A stretch of DNA of 24,000 nucleotides from an uncultured Desulfobacterales bacterium. Its GTDB lineage: Bacteria; Desulfobacterota; Desulfobaccia; Desulfobaccales; 0-14-0-80-60-11. The translations under genes and the position numbers were made by a program. Positions within the stretch are counted from its first letter, which is position 1. Each line of letters opens with the position of its first letter. The DNA lies in contig CAZUBT010000010.1 of NCBI GenBank assembly GCA_964618815.1, forward strand, positions 32,799 through 56,798. The letters are read 5' to 3'. Shown piece by piece: positions 1,715 to 20,559 of this stretch. Under the pieces are notes generated by a model, which had not been told where the DNA came from, searched no databases, and saw only the letters and a program-made list of their open reading frames with translations.

Positions 1715-2848
1715 ATGCGGGTGAATATGTCGCGGGAGACTCTGTTAAAGGGGGTGGGGCGGACCCTGGGAGTGGTGGATCGTCGGGGTAACATGCCCAT
1801 CTTGAGCAATTTTCTCTTCCAAGCCGAAGGGGATCGGGTAACCATTTCCGCCACGGACCTGGAGGTAAGCTTCCGGGGGTATTACCCCGCGGTGGTGGAA
1901 GAACCGGGGGCCTTAACCCTACCGGCCCACTATTGCTTCAATCTGATTAAAGAACTCCCTGGGGAATCCGTGGACCTCGTAGGCACGGAAAAATCCAACC
2001 TGAAGATGGAAGTGGGAGAATCTCACTACCATCTCCTGGGCCTGCCCGCGGATCAATTTCCTCCCATCCCCCAGGTCACCGACCAGAAGCTGGTGGAAGT
2101 GGAAAGCGCCTTGCTCCGGGAAATGATCGAGAAAACCATCTTCGCGGTGTCCGCGGACGACCTCCAGTACCATCTGTCCGGCATTTTCTGGGAACGGGTG
2201 CAAACCGAGGAAGGCGACTATATTCTGCGCCTGGTGTCCACCGACGGCCACCGCCTCACCCTGATTGAGCGCGCCCTGCCGGAAAGCGAGCATTTCGCCA
2301 TCGAAGAAGGCATCCTGATCCCCAGGAAAGGGGTAGCGGAAATCTCCCGCCTGCTGGCCGAAGAAGAAAAGGTGTCCATCGGCGTCACCCAGAAAAGCCT
2401 GGTGATCAAAGTAAATGAGAAATACCTATTCATCCGGTTGTTGGAAAAGAAATTTCCCGATTACCGCCGGATTATCCCGGAAAGCTTTGCCATCCGGTTT
2501 GCCCTGAACCGCCGGATGCTGCACGACACCCTGCGGCGCATCTCTTTGCTGTCCACCGAGCGTTTTAAAGGGGTGATTTTTAGACTGGGGGAGAATGCCG
2601 CGGAAGTTACCTTTACCAACCCGGAAATCGGGGATGGCCGGGAGACCTTTCCATTGACCCTGGAGATGGGCGATCCCGAGGGCCTGCCGATAGAGATCGG
2701 CTACAACGCCCGTTATCTATTGGAGCCGTTGAGCGTCATGACGGGAGAGACGGTGTTCCTGGAAGTGAACGAAAAAGACCGCCCCTGCCGCCTGATGGAT
2801 AAGGACGACCCCGGCTACTTCGCCATCATCATGCCCATGAGTTTGTAA
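1715..2848 (+). CDS. dnaN: DNA polymerase III beta sliding clamp
   Basis: The roughly 378-aa ORF has typical DnaN length and layout (three-domain clamp, C-terminal ...RLMDKDDPGYFAIIMPMSL). GGGAGA (1702-1707) sits 7 nt before the ATG at 1715. Alternative in-frame starts exist at 1700 and 1727. Confidence 0.93.
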   Translation: MRVNMSRETLLKGVGRTLGVVDRRGNMPILSNFLFQAEGDRVTISATDLEVSFRGYYPAVVEEPGALTLPAHYCFNLIKELPGESVDLVGTEKSNLKMEVGESHYHLLGLPADQFPPIPQVTDQKLVEVESALLREMIEKTIFAVSADDLQYHLSGIFWERVQTEEGDYILRLVSTDGHRLTLIERALPESEHFAIEEGILIPRKGVAEISRLLAEEEKVSIGVTQKSLVIKVNEKYLFIRLLEKKFPDYRRIIPESFAIRFALNRRMLHDTLRRISLLSTERFKGVIFRLGENAAEVTFTNPEIGDGRETFPLTLEMGDPEGLPIEIGYNARYLLEPLSVMTGETVFLEVNEKDRPCRLMDKDDPGYFAIIMPMSL

Positions 2849-2850
2849 AG

Positions 2851-2881
2851 ACGGTTTTCGGTTTCCGGTTTTCAGTTTTCG
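2851..2881 (-). repeat. Heptad array (GGTTTTC)x4, the reverse complement of the CCGAAAA family
   Basis: CGGTTTTC GGTTTCC GGTTTTC AGTTTTC GG lies directly after the dnaN stop. It is in inverted orientation relative to the array at 3018-3040. Confidence 0.75.
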
Positions 2882-2925
2882 GTAAAAATTATAAAATCGG
2901 ATTTGTTAGGCGCTCAGGGCACATT

Positions 2926-2956
2926 AATGTGGGGCGCGTAATACCCCCACATTTTG
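2926..2956 (+). terminator. Hairpin plus T-run, possible dnaN terminator
   Basis: Stem AATGTGGGG (2926-2934) / CCCCACATT (2945-2953), 10-nt loop, then TTTT. Confidence 0.4.
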
Positions 2957-3017
2957 AAAATTAAAAATAAACACCATACTTTACTTAAAGAAATACAATA
3001 TTCTCATTTGGCCTGAT

Positions 3018-3047: not shown

Positions 3048-3500
3048 ATGGCCCGCATCGGCATTATTACCTGTTCCAATTGCACTCAGGAAACGCACTG
3101 CGCTTCAGTAGTGTGTCTGGGGGATTTACGGAAGCGACGGGGTTTCTTCGAGCAGTATCCTAAAGATGAGCCGTTGGATTTGATCGGGATTATCAATTGC
3201 GCCGGTTGTCCAACCTTGGTAGCGCCGGAAAAAATCTTAAAAAGAGTGCGGGCCGTGGCAGAATTTAAAATTGACGCCTTGCATCTGTCATTTTGCATGG
3301 TGGCTCTTTGTCCTTTTATCCATAAATATATGGACTTGATTAAACAGGCGTTTCCTGATATAAGTATAATAATGGGGACGCATCAACCTGTTGATAAAGA
3401 AAGGTTTAAAAAAGGCGTCAAAGAACTGTTGTGTCAAACTTTGAATCCTTCCCAAACCATGAATGACATGATTAGAGGCACAATAAAAATTCCACAGTAA
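3048..3500 (+). CDS. CGGC-domain (putative metal-binding, Cys-rich) protein
   Basis: 150-aa ORF. The N-terminus IGIITCSNCTQETHCASVVCL...GFFEQY...LIGIINCAGCP matches my recollection of the CGGC domain family (here CAGC in place of CGGC). The gene is visibly AT-rich compared with dnaN and gyrB. Confidence 0.65.
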   Translation: MARIGIITCSNCTQETHCASVVCLGDLRKRRGFFEQYPKDEPLDLIGIINCAGCPTLVAPEKILKRVRAVAEFKIDALHLSFCMVALCPFIHKYMDLIKQAFPDISIIMGTHQPVDKERFKKGVKELLCQTLNPSQTMNDMIRGTIKIPQ

Positions 3501-3517
3501 TAGTTTCTTCTCATTGA

Positions 3518-5965
<2,448 letters not shown>

Positions 5966-7625: not shown

Positions 7626-7701
7626 GAGGGGAGGGCCGGGGGACATTTTTCGTAAGGGTTCCCCCGCCCTCCCCTCTAACTCCCCTCCCAACCCCCTTTA
7701 A
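7626..7701. repeat. G-run/C-run palindromic repeat plus half-site
   Basis: GAGGGGAGGGCCGGGGGA (7626-7643) pairs with TCCCCCGCCCTCCCCTC (7660-7676). AACTCCCCTCCCAACCCCCTTTAA (7678-7701) matches 11109-11132 at 23 of 24 positions. Confidence 0.6.
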
Positions 7702-10800: not shown

Positions 10801-11069
10801 CCCTGGCCCTGCGCACCGACCGGGAATCCATCTTCAGGGTGGGCCTGACCTCAAACCGCCTACTGCTGGCGGGCCTGGTCAGTGTGCCCCTGGTCCTGCT
10901 GGCCCTGAGCCAGGTGCCGGTCCTGCAACGCAGCTTCGGCACCGCGCCTTTGAGGGGGACGGACTGGCTGGTTCTCCTGATTTTCCCCGTGGTGCAGGTT
11001 TTGGCGGACGAGGCCCGCAAGGCCTGGGCGCGCCGGCGGGATCGGGGGGAGGGGAAGCATAAGGCTTGA
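7878..11069 (+). CDS. P-type (E1-E2) cation-transporting ATPase with N-terminal PTS EIIA type-2 (PtsN-like) domain
   Basis: 1063 aa. Motifs: Cation_ATPase_N-like LSPEEAAARLKEIGPNRI, TGES (DNSALTGESRP), PEGLLPT in TM4, phosphorylation site ICTDKTGTLT, and hinge TGDGVNDGPALKAADIGVAMG. The first ~150 aa are collinear with PtsN/EIIA-2 (GLGIFH versus GIAIPH; LLSPLKDSGYHFQILSKLIALL versus LLVPADQTKTHLHTLSLVAKRL). Confidence 0.9.
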   Translation: MKIHELLSPANIVPRFDPGPDDPLKALVALARARAGSAVDAARFEAEELKLIHGYLGEGLGIFHNLTDAVDAPLLVLALAPSGVQVTGQNLRALAALLSPLKDSGYHFQILSKLIALLRNPRFREELLAKETPGELLRAVKLEEESGRERYWVLSRDEVLTELETTARGLSPEEAAARLKEIGPNRIARVRRRPLILRFGANLVNLFALLLWAASGFAYLAGMPELAYAIPLVILINAVFSFFQEYRAEKAVEALERLIPAMTRVVRDGEVWQVEAAGLAPGDIILLEAGDQVPGDARLIEAEDFRVDNSALTGESRPAYKFAEPVEDGQEFLWIEMPNLVFAGTAVVSGSARGVVMATGMDTQLGNIASLTQAVEEKPSPLQQEMRVVGKVVAGVACSVGLVFFLAGIVTGKLTFLASLIFAIGMIVAFVPEGLLPTLSLSLAMGVQRMARKNALVKKLSSVETLGAATVICTDKTGTLTTNEIVVGRVWLGGELLGVTGSGFQPQGRLELHGEPLSPKKLESPLMELFTRGAILCNNASLSAAGKVTGDPTEAALLALAAKAGKNWQEVRAAAPRRKAFPFESVRKRMSVIHTSPQGRLHCWVKGAPDTLIPLCRTVTEWDGQERPLTTQDRAGLIQVMNDLAQKGLRLLALAWKEADSPEMSQAQAESGLSFLGIAGMMDPPRREVPGAIEKCHRAGIRVIMITGDYGGTARAIAGEVGLRLDARTPVMTGDQVSRLPEAQLRKILKGKEDLVFARTSPEDKLRIVMALRDLGQVVAVTGDGVNDGPALKAADIGVAMGKRGAEVSKEAASMVLADDNFASIVTAIEEGRAVYANIKKFITYIFASNVAEAIPFILFVLMGIPLPLGIMQVLAVDLGADLLPALALGSEPPEPGIMDRPPRNRKAHLINPEVARRFAFLGLLTGAAGMLAYFYAYLTGGWRPGLEMAASGPLYARATTMCYGGIIMAAAGNALALRTDRESIFRVGLTSNRLLLAGLVSVPLVLLALSQVPVLQRSFGTAPLRGTDWLVLLIFPVVQVLADEARKAWARRRDRGEGKHKA

Positions 11070-11108
11070 GGGGAAGGCCGGGGGAAAACCATTCCCCGCC
11101 ATTCCCTC

Positions 11109-11162
11109 AAACTCCCCTCCCATCCCCCTTTAAGGGGGTTGGGAGAGCGGGTTTGGGAGAGG
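11109..11162. repeat. G-run/C-run palindromic repeat (full copy), possible bidirectional terminator between convergent genes
   Basis: AACTCCCCTCCCATCCCCCTTTAAGGGGGTTGGGAGAGCGGGTTTGGGAGAGG. The core is CTCCCA-N-CCCCC-TTTAA-GGGGG-N-TGGGAG. The left arm repeats 7678-7701. Confidence 0.6.
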
Positions 11163-11176
11163 ATTGTCAGCGGGCC

Positions 11177-14600: not shown

Positions 14601-14672
14601 ATGTGGGGTACGTCCTACGAGCCCGATCCGGTGCAGTGGTCCGCTGACTTCAAGACCAGGAGAATGCCATGA
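14601..14672 (+). pseudogene. Probable 3' remnant (about 20 codons) of a DUF4258-type toxin gene
   Basis: The short frame ...SYEPDPVQWSADFKTRRMP* resembles the conserved C-terminus (..YxPDPxxWxxDFxxRR) of the toxins I recall upstream of YgiT-type antitoxins. Its TGA overlaps the antitoxin ATG (ATGA at 14669-14672). Upstream sequence is replaced by the end of livH. Confidence 0.35.
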
Positions 14673-14893
14673 AATGTGTTATTTGTCGTCAAGGCGAGAC
14701 TTTTCCCGGAATGGTGACCGTCCCTATGCAGCGCGGGGAGACCACGGTAATTTTCAAGCAGGTTCCCGCAGAGGTTTGCGAGAACTGCGGAGAATATTTT
14801 CTGACCCAGGCGGTAACCGACCGGTTGCTGACCAGGGCGGAGGAAGCGGTCAAGAAGGGGGCGGAAGTGGAGATTCTGCGTTACGCGGCGTGA
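14669..14893 (+). CDS. YgiT-type zinc-finger protein (MqsA-family antitoxin-like)
   Basis: 74 aa. MKCVICRQGE...VPAEVCENCGEYFL gives the two CxxC pairs in the typical YgiT arrangement. CAGGAGA RBS upstream. Confidence 0.8.
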   Translation: MKCVICRQGETFPGMVTVPMQRGETTVIFKQVPAEVCENCGEYFLTQAVTDRLLTRAEEAVKKGAEVEILRYAA

Positions 14894-14910
14894 TGGGGCA
14901 ATTATTTCTT

Positions 14911-14940
14911 CTGGTTCCCAAGCAGGAACTTGGGAACCAG
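14911..14940. repeat. Perfect 12-bp stem hairpin
   Basis: CTGGTTCCCAAG (14911-14922), loop CAGGAA, CTTGGGAACCAG (14929-14940). There is no strong T-run, so it is more likely a repeat-family hairpin than a classical terminator. Confidence 0.6.
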
Positions 14941-14974
14941 ATAAATTCTAAGCGATTTCATGGTGAGTAAGAAC

Positions 14975-15082
14975 ATGCAACGCATCCTCATGGGCAATGA
15001 GGCCATGGGCCGGGGTATTGTGGAGTGCGGCTGCACCCTGGCCGCGTCCTATCCCGGGACCCCGGGCTTCGAGAAGATGTAG
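14975..15082 (+). pseudogene. Truncated duplicate of the iorA 5' end (35 codons then stop)
   Basis: 14978-15048 is identical to 15600-15670 (71 of 71). Similarity continues with scattered substitutions to about 15074. It encodes MQRILMGNEAMGRGIVECGCTLAASYPGTPGFEKM*. Confidence 0.8.
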
Positions 15083-15084
15083 TT

Positions 15085-15503
15085 CCCCCCTTTTCTAAAG
15101 GGGGGTTAGGGGGGATTATAAGGTGCTCCCTTACAACAAGAGACTTAAAAAATTTGCCAGAGACCTGCGGAAGAACATGACAGAGGCCGAATTTTTTCTT
15201 TGGATGAGGATCAGGAAAAGGCAAATAGAGAACCTCCAATTTTATCGGCAGCGAATTATATGCAACTACATTGTCGATTTCTATTGCCCGCAAGCAAAAT
15301 TAGTCATCGAAATTGACGGCAGTCAACATTATTCTGAGGAAGGGATGGCAAAAGACAGGGAGCGAGACAATCATCTGACCGATTTGGGGATGACCGTCCT
15401 GAGATTTTCTGCCAGGGAAGTCTTTACAAATACTGAAGGGGTTATGGAATGTATTTACAGTCACTTAGGTAATCCCCCCTGACCCCCCTTTAAAAAAGGG
15501 GGG
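15085..15503 (+). mobile_element. Compact TIR-bounded unit carrying only a DUF559 endonuclease ORF (candidate selfish element)
   Basis: Left end CCCCCCTTTTCTAAAGGGGGGTTAGGGGGGATTA (15085-15118). Reverse complement of the right end (15470-15503) is CCCCCCTTTTTTAAAGGGGGGTCAGGGGGGATTA. They match at 32 of 34. Each end is itself a C6-N9-G6 hairpin. The interior is AT-rich relative to the flanks. Confidence 0.55.
15123..15482 (+). CDS. DUF559 (Vsr-like / PD-(D/E)XK fold) endonuclease domain protein
   Basis: 119 aa. The pattern LRKNMTEAEFFLW...YIVDFYCPQAKLVIEIDGSQH...RDNHLTDLGMTVLRFSAREV is the classic DUF559 pattern. GTG start. The TGA stop lies inside the right TIR. Confidence 0.88.
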   Translation: MLPYNKRLKKFARDLRKNMTEAEFFLWMRIRKRQIENLQFYRQRIICNYIVDFYCPQAKLVIEIDGSQHYSEEGMAKDRERDNHLTDLGMTVLRFSAREVFTNTEGVMECIYSHLGNPP

Positions 15504-15566
15504 AAGAATATGTTTGTTCTGGGGTGAATATTTTTGCTCTTTGTGAGAGTCGGTAATTATTGAATT

Positions 15567-17417
15567 ATGGCAAACAAGACACTTACATCAAATAATACCC
15601 AACGCATCCTCATGGGCAATGAGGCCATGGGCCGGGGTATTGTGGAGTGCGGCTGCACCCTGGCCGCGTCGTATCCCGGCACCCCGGCCTCGGAGATCCT
15701 CGCGGCGGTCGCGGCCTTTGCCGAAGAGACTGGTGCGGCCATTCACGCGGAGTGGTCGGTGAACGAAAAGGTGGCTTATGAAACCGCGCTGGCCAACTCC
15801 ATGGCGGGCCGCCGGTCCGCGGTGTCCATGAAGCAGGTGGGCCTCAACGTGGCCTCGGACCCCTTTCTGCGCTCCGCCTACTTAGGGGTCAAGGGCGGCC
15901 TGGTGGTCATCTCCGCGGACGACCCCGGCCCCCACAGCTCCCAGACGGAGCAGGACAGCCGCTTTTTCGCCATGTTCGCCAAGATTCCCGTACTGGACCC
16001 CGCCGGCCCCCGGGAGGCCAAAGACCTGGTGCGCCGGGCCTTGGAGCTTTCCGAAAAATACGAGATTCCGGTGATGCTGCGCCCCACCACCCGGGTGTGC
16101 CACGCCCGGCAGAATGTGCCTTTATATCCGCCCGACCGGCTGGACCGGCCCGCCCGGTTCGAGAAAAACCCCGGCCGCTGGTGCGCCACGCCCCAGTACT
16201 TGCGGGAACTGCACCGGCAGCTCAATGAAAAAATCGTCCAAATCGCCGGGGAGCCGGACTTTGCGCCCCGGTTGACCCCCGGGGACGGCTCCTACCCGGA
16301 AACCTGCATCATCGCTTCAGGGGTGGCCTTCGCCCACACCTGGGACCTCCTGGAGGATATGGGCCTCCTGGGCCGGGTGGATTTCTATCAGGTGACCATG
16401 CCGTACCCCCTGAACCGGGATTTCATCCGGCAGATCTCCGGCCATTACCGCCAGATTTTAGTTATCGAAGAAACCTATCCGGTTATCGAATTACAATTGG
16501 CAGACTCAAAGATCAGCGGCCGAAACTCCCAGGATATCCCCAATCAAGGAGAACTGACCCCGGAGGTCATCCGCCCGGCCCTGGAGAAATTTTTAAAGCT
16601 TCCCGCCCGAACCGTCATCCCGGCCCCTGCCGCGGCCGGGGCGCGGCCCACCCTGTGCGCCGGGTGCGGCCACCGGGCCGCATTTTACGCCATCCGGGAG
16701 ACCTTCCCCGGCGGCATCTTCCCCAGTGACATCGGCTGCTACACCCTGGGAATGAACCTGGGCGCGGTGGACACCTGCCACTGCATGGGGGCCGGCATCA
16801 GCCAGGCCGCGGGCTTCTACCATGCCTACGCCGCGACCGGCGGGGAAATCCCCCCCATCGTGGCCACCATCGGAGACTCCACCTTCTTTCACGCGGGGAT
16901 TCCGGCCCTCATCAACGCGGTGTTTCACAACGCCCGCATCCTGGTGGTCATCCTGGACAACGCCACCACTGCCATGACCGGCCACCAGCCCACCCCCCAG
17001 GCCGGGCTCACCGCCGGGGGGGAACCGGGGCAGCCGGTGTTCATTCCTGAACTGGTGCGGGCCTGCGGGGTCAAGTTCTTGCAGGAGGCCGACCCCTACG
17101 ACTTGCCGGGGTTTATGAGCCTGCTAAGGGAAGCCCAGGAGTATTGCCGCAGCGCAGCCGGCGGGCCCGGGGTGATCATCGCCCGGCATCCCTGCCTCCT
17201 GGACAAGGAGGCCGGAAAATCCCAGGCGGCCTACATCATGCGGGTCACCGAGGACTGCACCGGCTGCCGCCACTGCCTGGACGACTTCGAATGTCCGGCC
17301 CTGTCCCTGGACGAACTTACCGACCTTGTGGACATTGACGTGCTCCGCTGTGTGGGCTGCGGGGTGTGCGTCCACGTGTGCCCCGGCGGGGCCATTGAGG
17401 CAAAGCCATTGACATAG
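15567..17417 (+). CDS. iorA: Indolepyruvate:ferredoxin oxidoreductase, alpha subunit
   Basis: 616 aa. N-terminal LMGNEAMGRGIVECG, a TPP-binding region (GDSTFFHAG), and C-terminal 2x[4Fe-4S] motifs (CTGCRHC..., CVGCGVCVHVCP). The start codon is uncertain because the 5' end lies next to the DUF559 insertion. Confidence 0.92.
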   Translation: MANKTLTSNNTQRILMGNEAMGRGIVECGCTLAASYPGTPASEILAAVAAFAEETGAAIHAEWSVNEKVAYETALANSMAGRRSAVSMKQVGLNVASDPFLRSAYLGVKGGLVVISADDPGPHSSQTEQDSRFFAMFAKIPVLDPAGPREAKDLVRRALELSEKYEIPVMLRPTTRVCHARQNVPLYPPDRLDRPARFEKNPGRWCATPQYLRELHRQLNEKIVQIAGEPDFAPRLTPGDGSYPETCIIASGVAFAHTWDLLEDMGLLGRVDFYQVTMPYPLNRDFIRQISGHYRQILVIEETYPVIELQLADSKISGRNSQDIPNQGELTPEVIRPALEKFLKLPARTVIPAPAAAGARPTLCAGCGHRAAFYAIRETFPGGIFPSDIGCYTLGMNLGAVDTCHCMGAGISQAAGFYHAYAATGGEIPPIVATIGDSTFFHAGIPALINAVFHNARILVVILDNATTAMTGHQPTPQAGLTAGGEPGQPVFIPELVRACGVKFLQEADPYDLPGFMSLLREAQEYCRSAAGGPGVIIARHPCLLDKEAGKSQAAYIMRVTEDCTGCRHCLDDFECPALSLDELTDLVDIDVLRCVGCGVCVHVCPGGAIEAKPLT

Positions 17418-20366: not shown

Positions 20367-20407
20367 GGTCTTTTCCAGAATTAAAGTCGGGCTTGATAAG
20401 AAATATT

Positions 20408-20436
20408 TCCCTAACCCCCTTTTAAAAAAAGGGGAA
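20408..20436. repeat. Solo degenerate copy of the DUF559-element end hairpin
   Basis: TTCCCTAACCCCCTTTTAAAAAAAGGGGAA resembles the right TIR CCCCCCTGACCCCCCTTTAAAAAAGGGGGG. Confidence 0.4.
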
Positions 20437-20559
20437 TCGGGTGAAAATAATCTAGTGTAGTCTGAAAGCCCTCCTTGTGGGGGATTGAAGGGAATTTTCA
20501 CCGGGAATTGTTCATTTCGGACCCCTGAACCCCAGACGAGGGGTGGAGCCGAAAAAGAT

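Follow-up and report, generated by a model that had tools for sequence, protein, structure and literature searches.

What is a small nuclease gene doing between two inverted, nearly identical ends at the doorstep of a metabolic gene? The gene, a member of the DUF559 family, lies in a 24,000-nt window (the whole stretch of DNA analysed, to which coordinates refer unless a locus is named) of contig CAZUBT010000010.1 from an uncultured Desulfobacterales bacterium, where it forms a 419-bp unit at 15085-15503 upstream of iorA. The original prediction took this unit for a minimal mobile element, bounded by terminal inverted repeats (TIRs), that had interrupted iorA. We lean towards another answer: on balance, the unit is the resident copy of a widespread repeat-associated nuclease cassette, whose nuclease would act on folded inverted triplex motifs in a manner resembling the RAYT/REP system.

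The cassette, composed of a DUF559 open reading frame (ORF) between inverted 34-nt ends, is framed as exactly as first described. The core at 15085-15118 and the reverse complement of 15470-15503 are identical at 32/34 positions, the GTG start lies 4 nt past the left end, and the TGA stop (15480-15482) falls within the right end. Longer inverted arms (15074-15118 and 15470-15514) extend over 45 nt with 87% complementarity. Two copies of the inner 19-mer, GGGGGGTTAGGGGGGATTA, are present in the window, where chance alone predicts 0.05; the bare C6-N9-G6 pattern is unremarkable there, with 2 found and 2.5 expected when one mismatch is allowed. The last three DUF559 codons (NPP) are encoded by the complement of the right-end third strand, and the left-end G-run, 8 nt 5' of the GTG, probably doubles as a ribosome-binding site. 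In relatives, reading the right loop on the opposite strand gives the left loop. The repetition is thus truly inverted and not direct, which rules out the flanking hairpins as a direct target-site duplication. No target-site duplication was found at the cassette borders, in line with the first description, which could identify no clean one, and the flanks are unalignable directly outside the hairpins. The interior is AT-rich, again as described, at 42.5% GC against 60-62% in the flanks. The DUF559 gene, here (15119-15469) and in L003-L008, stands at ~42% GC in ~60% GC hosts despite an apparently long co-divergence with iorA.

Each end had been described as a hairpin, a spacer and G6-ATTA. The sequence is as given, and the description was incomplete in that a full intrastrand triplex motif was overlooked. 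In both ends, a 3-nt loop joins CCCCCCTTT to AAAGGGGGG and a 3-nt turn leads on to GGGGGGATT; this is the arrangement known as a class II purine-type intrastrand triplex motif (Hoyne and Maher 2000; Holder et al. 2015, PMC4666352). The ITxF criteria call for consecutive pyrimidine, purine and reverse-Hoogsteen blocks with stems of 6-15 nt, loops of 1-6 nt and at most one mismatched triad (PMC4666352); the two ends have 9-nt stems, 3-nt loops and 9/9 allowed triads, namely six C-G*G, one T-A*A and two T-A*T per end. Watson-Crick DNA folding yields a 9-bp hairpin (-9.8 kcal/mol for the left end) and leaves the third segment unpaired; this segment is nonetheless the most conserved part of the element. 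Rfam holds no family matching the ends, even at a permissive threshold.

The relation between the three segments becomes legible where the C or G runs are interrupted. The third segment then mirrors the purine arm and is neither its direct copy nor its complement: GAGGGG is matched by GGGGAG or GGGGTG, GGAGGG by GGGAGG or GGGTGG, GGGAGG by GGAGGG or GGTGGG, and GGAGAAGG by GGATGAGG. Across 85 DUF559 loci, comprising 80 from species-representative genomes of many phyla and five from close relatives, the informative interrupted arms include 59 that fit only the mirror and 2 that fit only a direct repeat, with ~2 of each class in shuffled controls. There are 18 distinct arm-to-third-strand types, including A-to-T swaps permitted only by the purine motif. 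The mirror pattern and these swaps thus follow the rule of the antiparallel purine-motif triple helix, and within each end, changes in the three segments are coordinated so as to keep C-G*G, T-A*A and T-A*T triads. The ATT at the tail is also consistent with the rule, being positioned over the AAA/TTT part of the stem. Read from the sequences, the mirror pattern shows selection for purine-purine antiparallel pairing. A G-quadruplex is a less likely cause of the pattern, the triplex being the simpler fit, since each end has only two G-runs per strand and the pyrimidine arm co-varies too. Purine-motif triplexes do not form in RNA (PMC4666352), which points to a role at the level of DNA.

That the inverted ends belong to the DUF559 gene, as first proposed, is borne out well beyond this locus: among the same 85 loci, the strict motif stands at both gene ends in 50, at one end in 26 and at neither in 9, so that 76/85 genes carry it on one or both sides. 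The background density, in sequence more than 300 nt from the gene, is 0.137 motifs per kb. The ends occupy fixed positions over the DUF559 start and stop in many phyla and point inward, with the third strand directed into the gene at 62 loci versus 9 on the left and at 64 versus 21 on the right. The motif type also tracks the protein clade. Relatives above ~55% identity carry C5-6 stems with a 2-4 nt turn, and in distant Clostridia, Bacteroidales and Megasphaera homologues the stems are of the CCCCTCC type and a mini-hairpin serves as the turn. Within one gene, the two ends are frequently different variants, each complying with the mirror (L019, L045, L046, L052, L056), which indicates selection on the fold of each end rather than on end-to-end identity. 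A separate arrangement is seen in a WOR-3 genome (L035), where 38-nt tandem arrays lie on both sides of the DUF559 gene (2658-3000 and 3389-3484) and the array unit is a complete triplex motif, CCTCCTTT GGT AAAGGAGG G TTA GGGAGGATTT.

Constraint on the ends is most directly read from eight iorA-linked lineages. Pairwise identity reaches 1.00 in the third strand and 0.90-0.98 in the hairpins and falls to ~0.3 in the flanks just outside, against 0.82/0.90/0.57 at codon positions 1/2/3 of the gene; the left end has 0.90 in the hairpin and 1.00 in the third strand, and the right end 0.98-1.00. Constraint on the ends far exceeds that on synonymous sites, and the drop in identity outside the hairpins fixes the borders at 15085 and ~15503-15505. 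The flank of one close relative (L002) departs immediately after GGGGGGAA, which marks the right boundary of the cassette. Between the window and L003, the gene differs by 40 synonymous and 29 non-synonymous codon changes. These differences, taken with the codon-position identities, indicate purifying selection, and the gene is not a decaying pseudogene.

The 119-aa product matches PF04480 (DUF559) at E=1e-35 and 122.3 bits, against a curated cut-off of 20.6, and retains the conserved acidic and histidine residues D52, E63, D65, H69, D78 and D82. Its AlphaFold model has a predicted local distance difference test score (pLDDT) of 83.8. Searching the model with Foldseek places 3HRL first, followed by the I-Bth0305I catalytic domain and then by PvuRts1I/AbaSI and Vsr; the Foldseek hits include the entries 3HRL, 3R3P and 1CW0. 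The sole sequence-related solved structure is 3HRL, a structural-genomics DUF559 protein. The protein is thus predicted to adopt a Vsr / EDxHD-like PD-(D/E)xK fold. Weak protein matches comprise homing and HNH families in PHROG and restriction-type domains in PADLOC.

The neighbourhood of iorA records how long the cassette has been in place. The closest DUF559 subfamily (at least 71% identity) always adjoins iorA, in the window and in L001-L008, L086, L087, L163 and L171. The duplication of iorA reported earlier is real, a 106-nt direct repeat (14969-15074 and 15591-15696, 92% identical) that places the iorA 5' end on either side of the cassette. An insertion interrupting the gene is not supported: the downstream copy constitutes the first ~130 nt of an intact 616-aa iorA, and what lies upstream is a duplicated stub of 40 codons with 88.6% identity (tblastn) to IorA residues 6-40. 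A recent mobile insertion fares no better. DUF559 and IorA identities run in step (76/76.8, 75/76.0, 74/73.0 and 75/73.8, or 74-76% versus 73-77%), full-length IorA homologues spanning 74-100% identity. Two sets of identical DUF559 proteins, P0113 and P0032, are each confined to one context across 5-6 samples, so that neither appears as several near-identical copies at unrelated sites. Co-divergence and single context together make the cassette an old resident, not a recent arrival.

Residence does not mean fixation. The empty site anticipated in a relative exists: in L162, a single bare hairpin (CCCCCCCTTTAGAAAAGGGGGG then AAGTTTTTC) separates livH from iorA, with neither the gene nor the third-strand segments. 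L163 has a plain cassette between livH and iorA, and L087, whose IorA is 96% identical, has a 5'-truncated gene of which only the 45 terminal codons remain, together with the right end and spacer. The gene is therefore present or absent at one homologous site, and the empty allele keeps one hairpin. The nearest homologues (L001 and L002, 95-96% identical) both have the iorA-stub left flank of the window, and the iorA right flank is found in L001 and a different one in L002. In L002 (528-966), the cassette and left flank are as in the window (95% identical protein) and the sequence after the right hairpin is unrelated to iorA; this reflects either another genomic context or a false join within the metagenome contig, which is 966 bp long.

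Local rearrangement accompanies the cassette. In L003 and L005 part of a unit lies upstream, and L007 (2133-3571) has a tandem array, repeating every ~613 nt, of three or more units, each made up of end, DUF559, end, spacer and iorA 5' piece; the downstream IorA match in L007 is in several pieces, and iorA is perhaps damaged there. The stub-to-end junction is common to the window, L001, L002 and L086, and the stub N-terminus upstream of it differs in each. The junction falls at ~codon 38 of iorA in most lineages and at ~codon 20 in L005. Direct duplications of host flank also accompany unrelated cassettes (L017, L058, L021, L074/L077). In L017, the 3' end and trailer of an upstream ABC ATPase gene are duplicated downstream of the cassette (2655-2843, 3346-3575 and 3535-3727), and a 115-nt tandem repeat includes the right end, in parallel with the iorA 5' duplication of the window. 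In our reading, recombination at the left end produced the iorA stub, which is then neither a target-site duplication nor the mark of a disrupted gene; candidate pathways are tandem duplication followed by deletion, and recombination with a homology anchor on one side only. Two metagenome scans for an ancestral uninterrupted iorA with the 5' codons of the stub gave no match, and the stub N-termini occur in 0/120 IorA homologues.

Copies of the motif exist without the gene, both solo and as ORF-less pairs, as had been foreseen. A search of viral contigs (L088-L161) for the exact C6 motif found 88 copies in 74 stretches, 87 of them with no DUF559 gene nearby. These copies are intergenic, some are paired, and they flank unrelated genes, among them one 507-aa ORF, a putative capsid gene. 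The phage or prophage contigs (e.g. L155, L149, L118) hold solo units, symmetric palindromes and outward pairs, the last consisting of a C5-type unit, ~12 nt and a C6-type unit. L018 has inward pairs without an ORF, and L049 has nested pairs. The repeat is far more abundant than the gene in the pooled viral contigs and in Escherichia coli (E. coli), where 23 copies of the related TMECO repeat stand against one DUF559 gene, ycjD. Within the window, the degenerate solo end suspected near 20408-20436 proved real (Table 1). Of the two related palindromes named with it, that at 11120-11140 lies within a symmetric degenerate copy ordered as third-strand complement, hairpin and third strand, and that at 7691-7701 is a half-site only. 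The intergenic stretches 11060-11175 and 7650-7700 are dense in short C or G runs (e.g. GGGGGTTGGGAGAGCGGGTTTGGGAGAGG), as are L087 2540-2600 and L006 3137-3175; such stretches may be degenerate triplex motifs or quadruplex-prone repeats. The best-supported reading of these distributions is that the cassette is inherited vertically and occasionally gained or lost at a hairpin, beside a larger population of solo and paired motifs.

An unlikely alternative, though the one that survives best, is a free-standing homing endonuclease that cuts a pre-existing hairpin or inverted pair and is copied between the halves by repair, the repeats being landing sites rather than products. The second-best structural match, I-Bth0305I, is a true homing endonuclease, and the weak PHROG homing/HNH matches lean the same way; the empty allele retains one hairpin at the exact site, ORF-less inward pairs resemble unoccupied sites, and flanking host sequence is duplicated or co-converted at several loci. 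However, the gene is stable and co-diverges with its host locus, and its start signal and last codons are built into the repeats. The 87/88 unoccupied repeats in viral contigs would be odd for an efficient homing enzyme, and the empty site of L162 lacks the third-strand segments.

The connection between gene and repeat recurs in E. coli. BoxC/PIT/TMECO repeats, known since the 1990s, mark unstable loci, and no function, origin or associated gene has been found for them; Holder et al. sought an associated mobility gene for TMECO and found none (PMC4666352). Triplex formation is established for TMECO, in vitro, by circular dichroism, nuclear magnetic resonance and dimethyl sulfate probing (PMC4666352). 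The TMECO/BoxC consensus is CCCTCNCCC N3-6 GGGNGAGGG N3 GGGNGAGGG, to which the window stems CCCCCCTTT / AAAGGGGGG / GGGGGGATT do not conform, so that the class is shared and the sequence family is different. The E. coli DUF559 gene, ycjD (with an NCBIfam match), is single-copy and present in 3378/5426 complete genomes. It is limited to phylogroups A, B1 and C and two sequence types, and the eefRABCD operon takes its place in other phylogroups (PMC12817139); as the alternative allele is this operon and no simple gap, a clean E. coli empty site was rejected. In some strains, ycjD terminates in an inverted TMECO whose register is that of the right end of the cassette. In NZ_LT883142.1 the end reads TCA CCCTCACCC CAA CCCTCTCCC TGAAAG GGCGAGGGGG, in the order TMECO third-strand complement, turn, pyrimidine arm, loop and a purine arm with one mismatch. 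A K-12 BoxC pair (164547-164631) faces inward with 16 nt between its members, which is the layout of the window element minus the ORF. The ycjD/TMECO region is covered by L177 (570-640 and 790-825) and L085 (2780-3400); a partial copy of the ycjD 3' end comes after the gene, and a further TMECO lies ~170 nt downstream.

Repeat numbers in E. coli were compared with the presence of ycjD. A combined ycjD-plus-BoxC query sampled 60 records, 45 ycjD-positive with a median of 6 matching places (~5 BoxC-like) and 15 ycjD-negative, for which the median was 1; in another 1000 genomes the combined query matched nowhere. For the strains listed in the earlier TMECO survey, the phylogroups are our own assignment. 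Published counts per genome are 19-30 in the A/B1 strains listed, 1-2 in B2 and 11-15 in D/E (PMC4666352). The E. coli counts agree with a dependence of the repeats on the gene, though confounded by phylogroup.

Distinctly improbable, in our judgement, is that there is neither mobility nor an enzyme-repeat link, the motifs being general intergenic punctuation and DUF559 an ordinary small repair or defence nuclease bracketed by chance. Such an account would take in the T-run after the right hairpin in relatives, the G-run at Shine-Dalgarno distance from the start, the motifs flanking other genes in phage contigs, vertical inheritance with purifying selection, and the weak PADLOC restriction-type matches. 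It is countered by the enrichment at DUF559 ends, far above background, by an orientation and register fixed across phyla, and by the change of motif type with DUF559 clade. A terminator would not need a third strand that mirrors the purine arm, nor would a ribosome-binding site, RNA does not form purine-motif triplexes (PMC4666352), no terminator is called in the window, and BoxC counts differ between ycjD-positive and ycjD-negative E. coli.

The weakest reading, an autonomous minimal TIR transposon with DUF559 as transposase, inserted into iorA, its solo and paired ends being derivatives, like miniature inverted-repeat transposable elements, that it mobilises by cut-and-paste or copy-and-paste, would suit inverted ends exactly at the gene borders, ORF-less inward pairs (L018; E. 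coli BoxC), presence or absence of the gene at one site, the AT-rich interior and the many homologues on very short contigs, but it is very doubtful given no target-site duplication, identical proteins in one context only across samples, a DUF559 gene diverged in step with iorA, ends of one element that are often different variants, an intact iorA with the stub junction at varying positions across lineages, and a predicted fold of nicking and homing nucleases and of no known transposase.

Under the reading we prefer, that of a resident repeat-associated nuclease cassette, the G-rich strand would become single-stranded during replication, repair or transcription, and each end would form a hairpin to which the third strand binds by reverse-Hoogsteen pairing. 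Recognition or nicking of this folded DNA by the DUF559 nuclease would maintain or spread the repeat family, and the gene would persist as a single-copy, vertically inherited partner, following RAYT/REP logic with another enzyme and another DNA structure. At this locus, the cassette would be an old resident upstream of iorA, and the stub a by-product of left-end recombination. Several points weigh against this picture. Recognition or nicking of the repeats is what we infer, and a triplex in the cell is putative. The T-run that follows the right hairpin in relatives is terminator-like and the G-run resembles a ribosome-binding site, so the conservation could be partly regulatory; the motifs that flank unrelated phage genes may likewise be general intergenic elements. 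In K-12, the left motif of ycjD is missing and 12 nt of the right motif have been lost, and the phylogroup confounding of the E. coli correlation leaves few independent contrasts.

Known systems bracket the cassette without containing it. Like the window ends, BoxC/PIT/TMECO repeats are composed of a pyrimidine arm, loop, purine arm, 3-nt turn (often TTA) and reverse-Hoogsteen strand, use the same triads (C-G*G, T-A*A, T-A*T), are intergenic, form inward inverted pairs and accompany local rearrangements. Their stem differs (CCCTCNCCC in TMECO, C6T3 here), and published work assigns them no gene or mobility function, whereas the motifs here frame a DUF559 gene, and in some E. coli an inverted TMECO forms the end of ycjD. 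RAYT/REP (REPIN) systems would share with the cassette a single-copy vertical gene under purifying selection, flanked by inverted structured repeats that are far commoner elsewhere as solo units or inverted pairs (here in viral contigs and E. coli). RAYT, however, is an HUH Y1 transposase and REP a plain palindrome, in contrast to the Vsr-like PD-(D/E)xK fold and the hairpin with a third strand found here, so the cassette, with its putative nuclease activity, is an analogue and not a member. EDxHD/Vsr-like homing endonucleases (I-Bth0305I, PMC3239194; the 'fractured genes' family, PMC2677866) have a related catalytic fold and are likewise small, selfish-looking nuclease genes with presence/absence polymorphism. 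They are housed in introns or between split inteins, and the site that they cut is long, asymmetric and part of a protein-coding target, whereas the cassette is intergenic, bounded by structured inverted repeats and long stable at its locus. IS200/IS605 and other elements acting on single-stranded DNA have ends read as folded single strands with non-Watson-Crick contacts, and the lack of a target-site duplication is common to IS200/IS605 and the cassette. Both IS200/IS605 hairpins lie on one strand and are served by an HUH transposase; here the ends are true inverted repeats and the G-rich strand alternates between them.

The features of the locus are collected in Table 1. The spacer between the right end and iorA is presumably the iorA 5' leader or promoter region; a promoter scan gave no convincing plus-strand site. 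A terminator scan of the window called none, so the right hairpin is no terminator call here and was rejected as one, the T-run after the hairpin being found in relatives only. Just beyond the right end, a 20-nt tandem direct repeat occupies 15501-15540 (GGGAAGAATATGTTTGTTCT / GGGGTGAATATTTTTGCTCT), and its second copy, GGGGTGAAT, fits an outward-pointing third strand of the right hairpin at 8/9 positions. Upstream, the stretch 14669-14941 contains the gene of a 74-aa YgiT-type zinc-finger protein, similar to MqsA in its N-terminal part and with no adjacent toxin gene, and after it a perfect 13-bp palindrome (14910-14922 and 14929-14941). The slot between livH and the cassette is variable in close relatives, with a 169-aa ORF in L086 and a weak DUF3800 match in L001.

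Table 1. Coordinates of the cassette, its parts, its neighbours and related motifs in the window.
Feature	Position	Strand	Evidence
Degenerate symmetric triplex-motif-like palindrome CTCCCATCCCCCTTTAAGGGGGTTGGGAG, intergenic	11113..11146	.	DNA fold -12.4 kcal/mol, z = -3.0
Dead iorA 5'-end stub, 40 codons (MVSKNMQRILMGNEAMGRGIVECGCTLAASYPGTPGFEKM*), upstream copy of the duplicated iorA start	14960..15082	+	ORF list; tblastn; direct repeat
10-nt junction AGATGTAGTT, iorA stub to left end	15075..15084	+	Sequence comparison; identical in L001, L002, L086
Left end, class II triplex motif	15085..15118	+	9/9 mirror positions; 9-bp hairpin
Left end, pyrimidine arm CCCCCCTTT	15085-15093		
Left end, loop TCT	15094-15096		
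Left end, purine arm AAAGGGGGG	15097-15105		
Left end, turn TTA	15106-15108		
Left end, third strand GGGGGGATT	15109-15117		
Left end, A	15118		
DUF559 nuclease gene, 119 aa, GTG start	15123..15482	+	Pfam, conserved columns, AlphaFold, Foldseek
Right end, same triplex motif	15470..15503	-	9/9 mirror positions; hairpin fold
Right end, pyrimidine arm	15503-15495		
Right end, loop	15494-15492		
Right end, purine arm	15491-15483		
Right end, turn (plus-strand TGA stop)	15482-15480		
Right end, third strand	15479-15471		
Right end, A	15470		
AT-rich spacer, 31.7% GC, right end to iorA start	15504..15566	+	Composition; kept in relatives including L087
Intact iorA, indolepyruvate:ferredoxin oxidoreductase alpha subunit, 616 aa	15567..17417	+	Pfam POR_N, TPP_enzyme_C, Fer4
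Degenerate solo copy CCCCTTTT TTT AAAAGGGG GTT AGGGAAAT, intergenic	20405..20447	-	7/8 mirror positions

Both components of the proposed system were known already, the DUF559 family and the class II triplex motifs (BoxC/PIT/TMECO). A structure has been solved for the very large DUF559 family, which to our knowledge has no assigned role. The searchable literature, outside which most subscription journals lie, contains no description of DUF559 in a TIR-bounded arrangement, as the original prediction had supposed, and none of the DUF559-motif association, the three-way co-variation or the ycjD-TMECO junction; an earlier description is possible. A bolder extension, which we hold tentatively and consider doubtful as a whole, is that DUF559 nucleases are the missing partner enzymes of BoxC/PIT/TMECO-class repeats, forming a phylum-spanning system in which a Vsr-like nuclease would recognise the three-stranded fold of the G strand. 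The link between DUF559 and the motif, from uncultured Thermodesulfobacteriota to E. coli ycjD, merges the two puzzles into a single hypothesis that can be tested in a tractable organism. That three segments co-vary in nature is unusually direct evolutionary evidence of selection on an intramolecular DNA triplex in bacteria, and the system, if the hypothesis is true, would be the first natural one in which such a triplex is the specific substrate of a dedicated enzyme.

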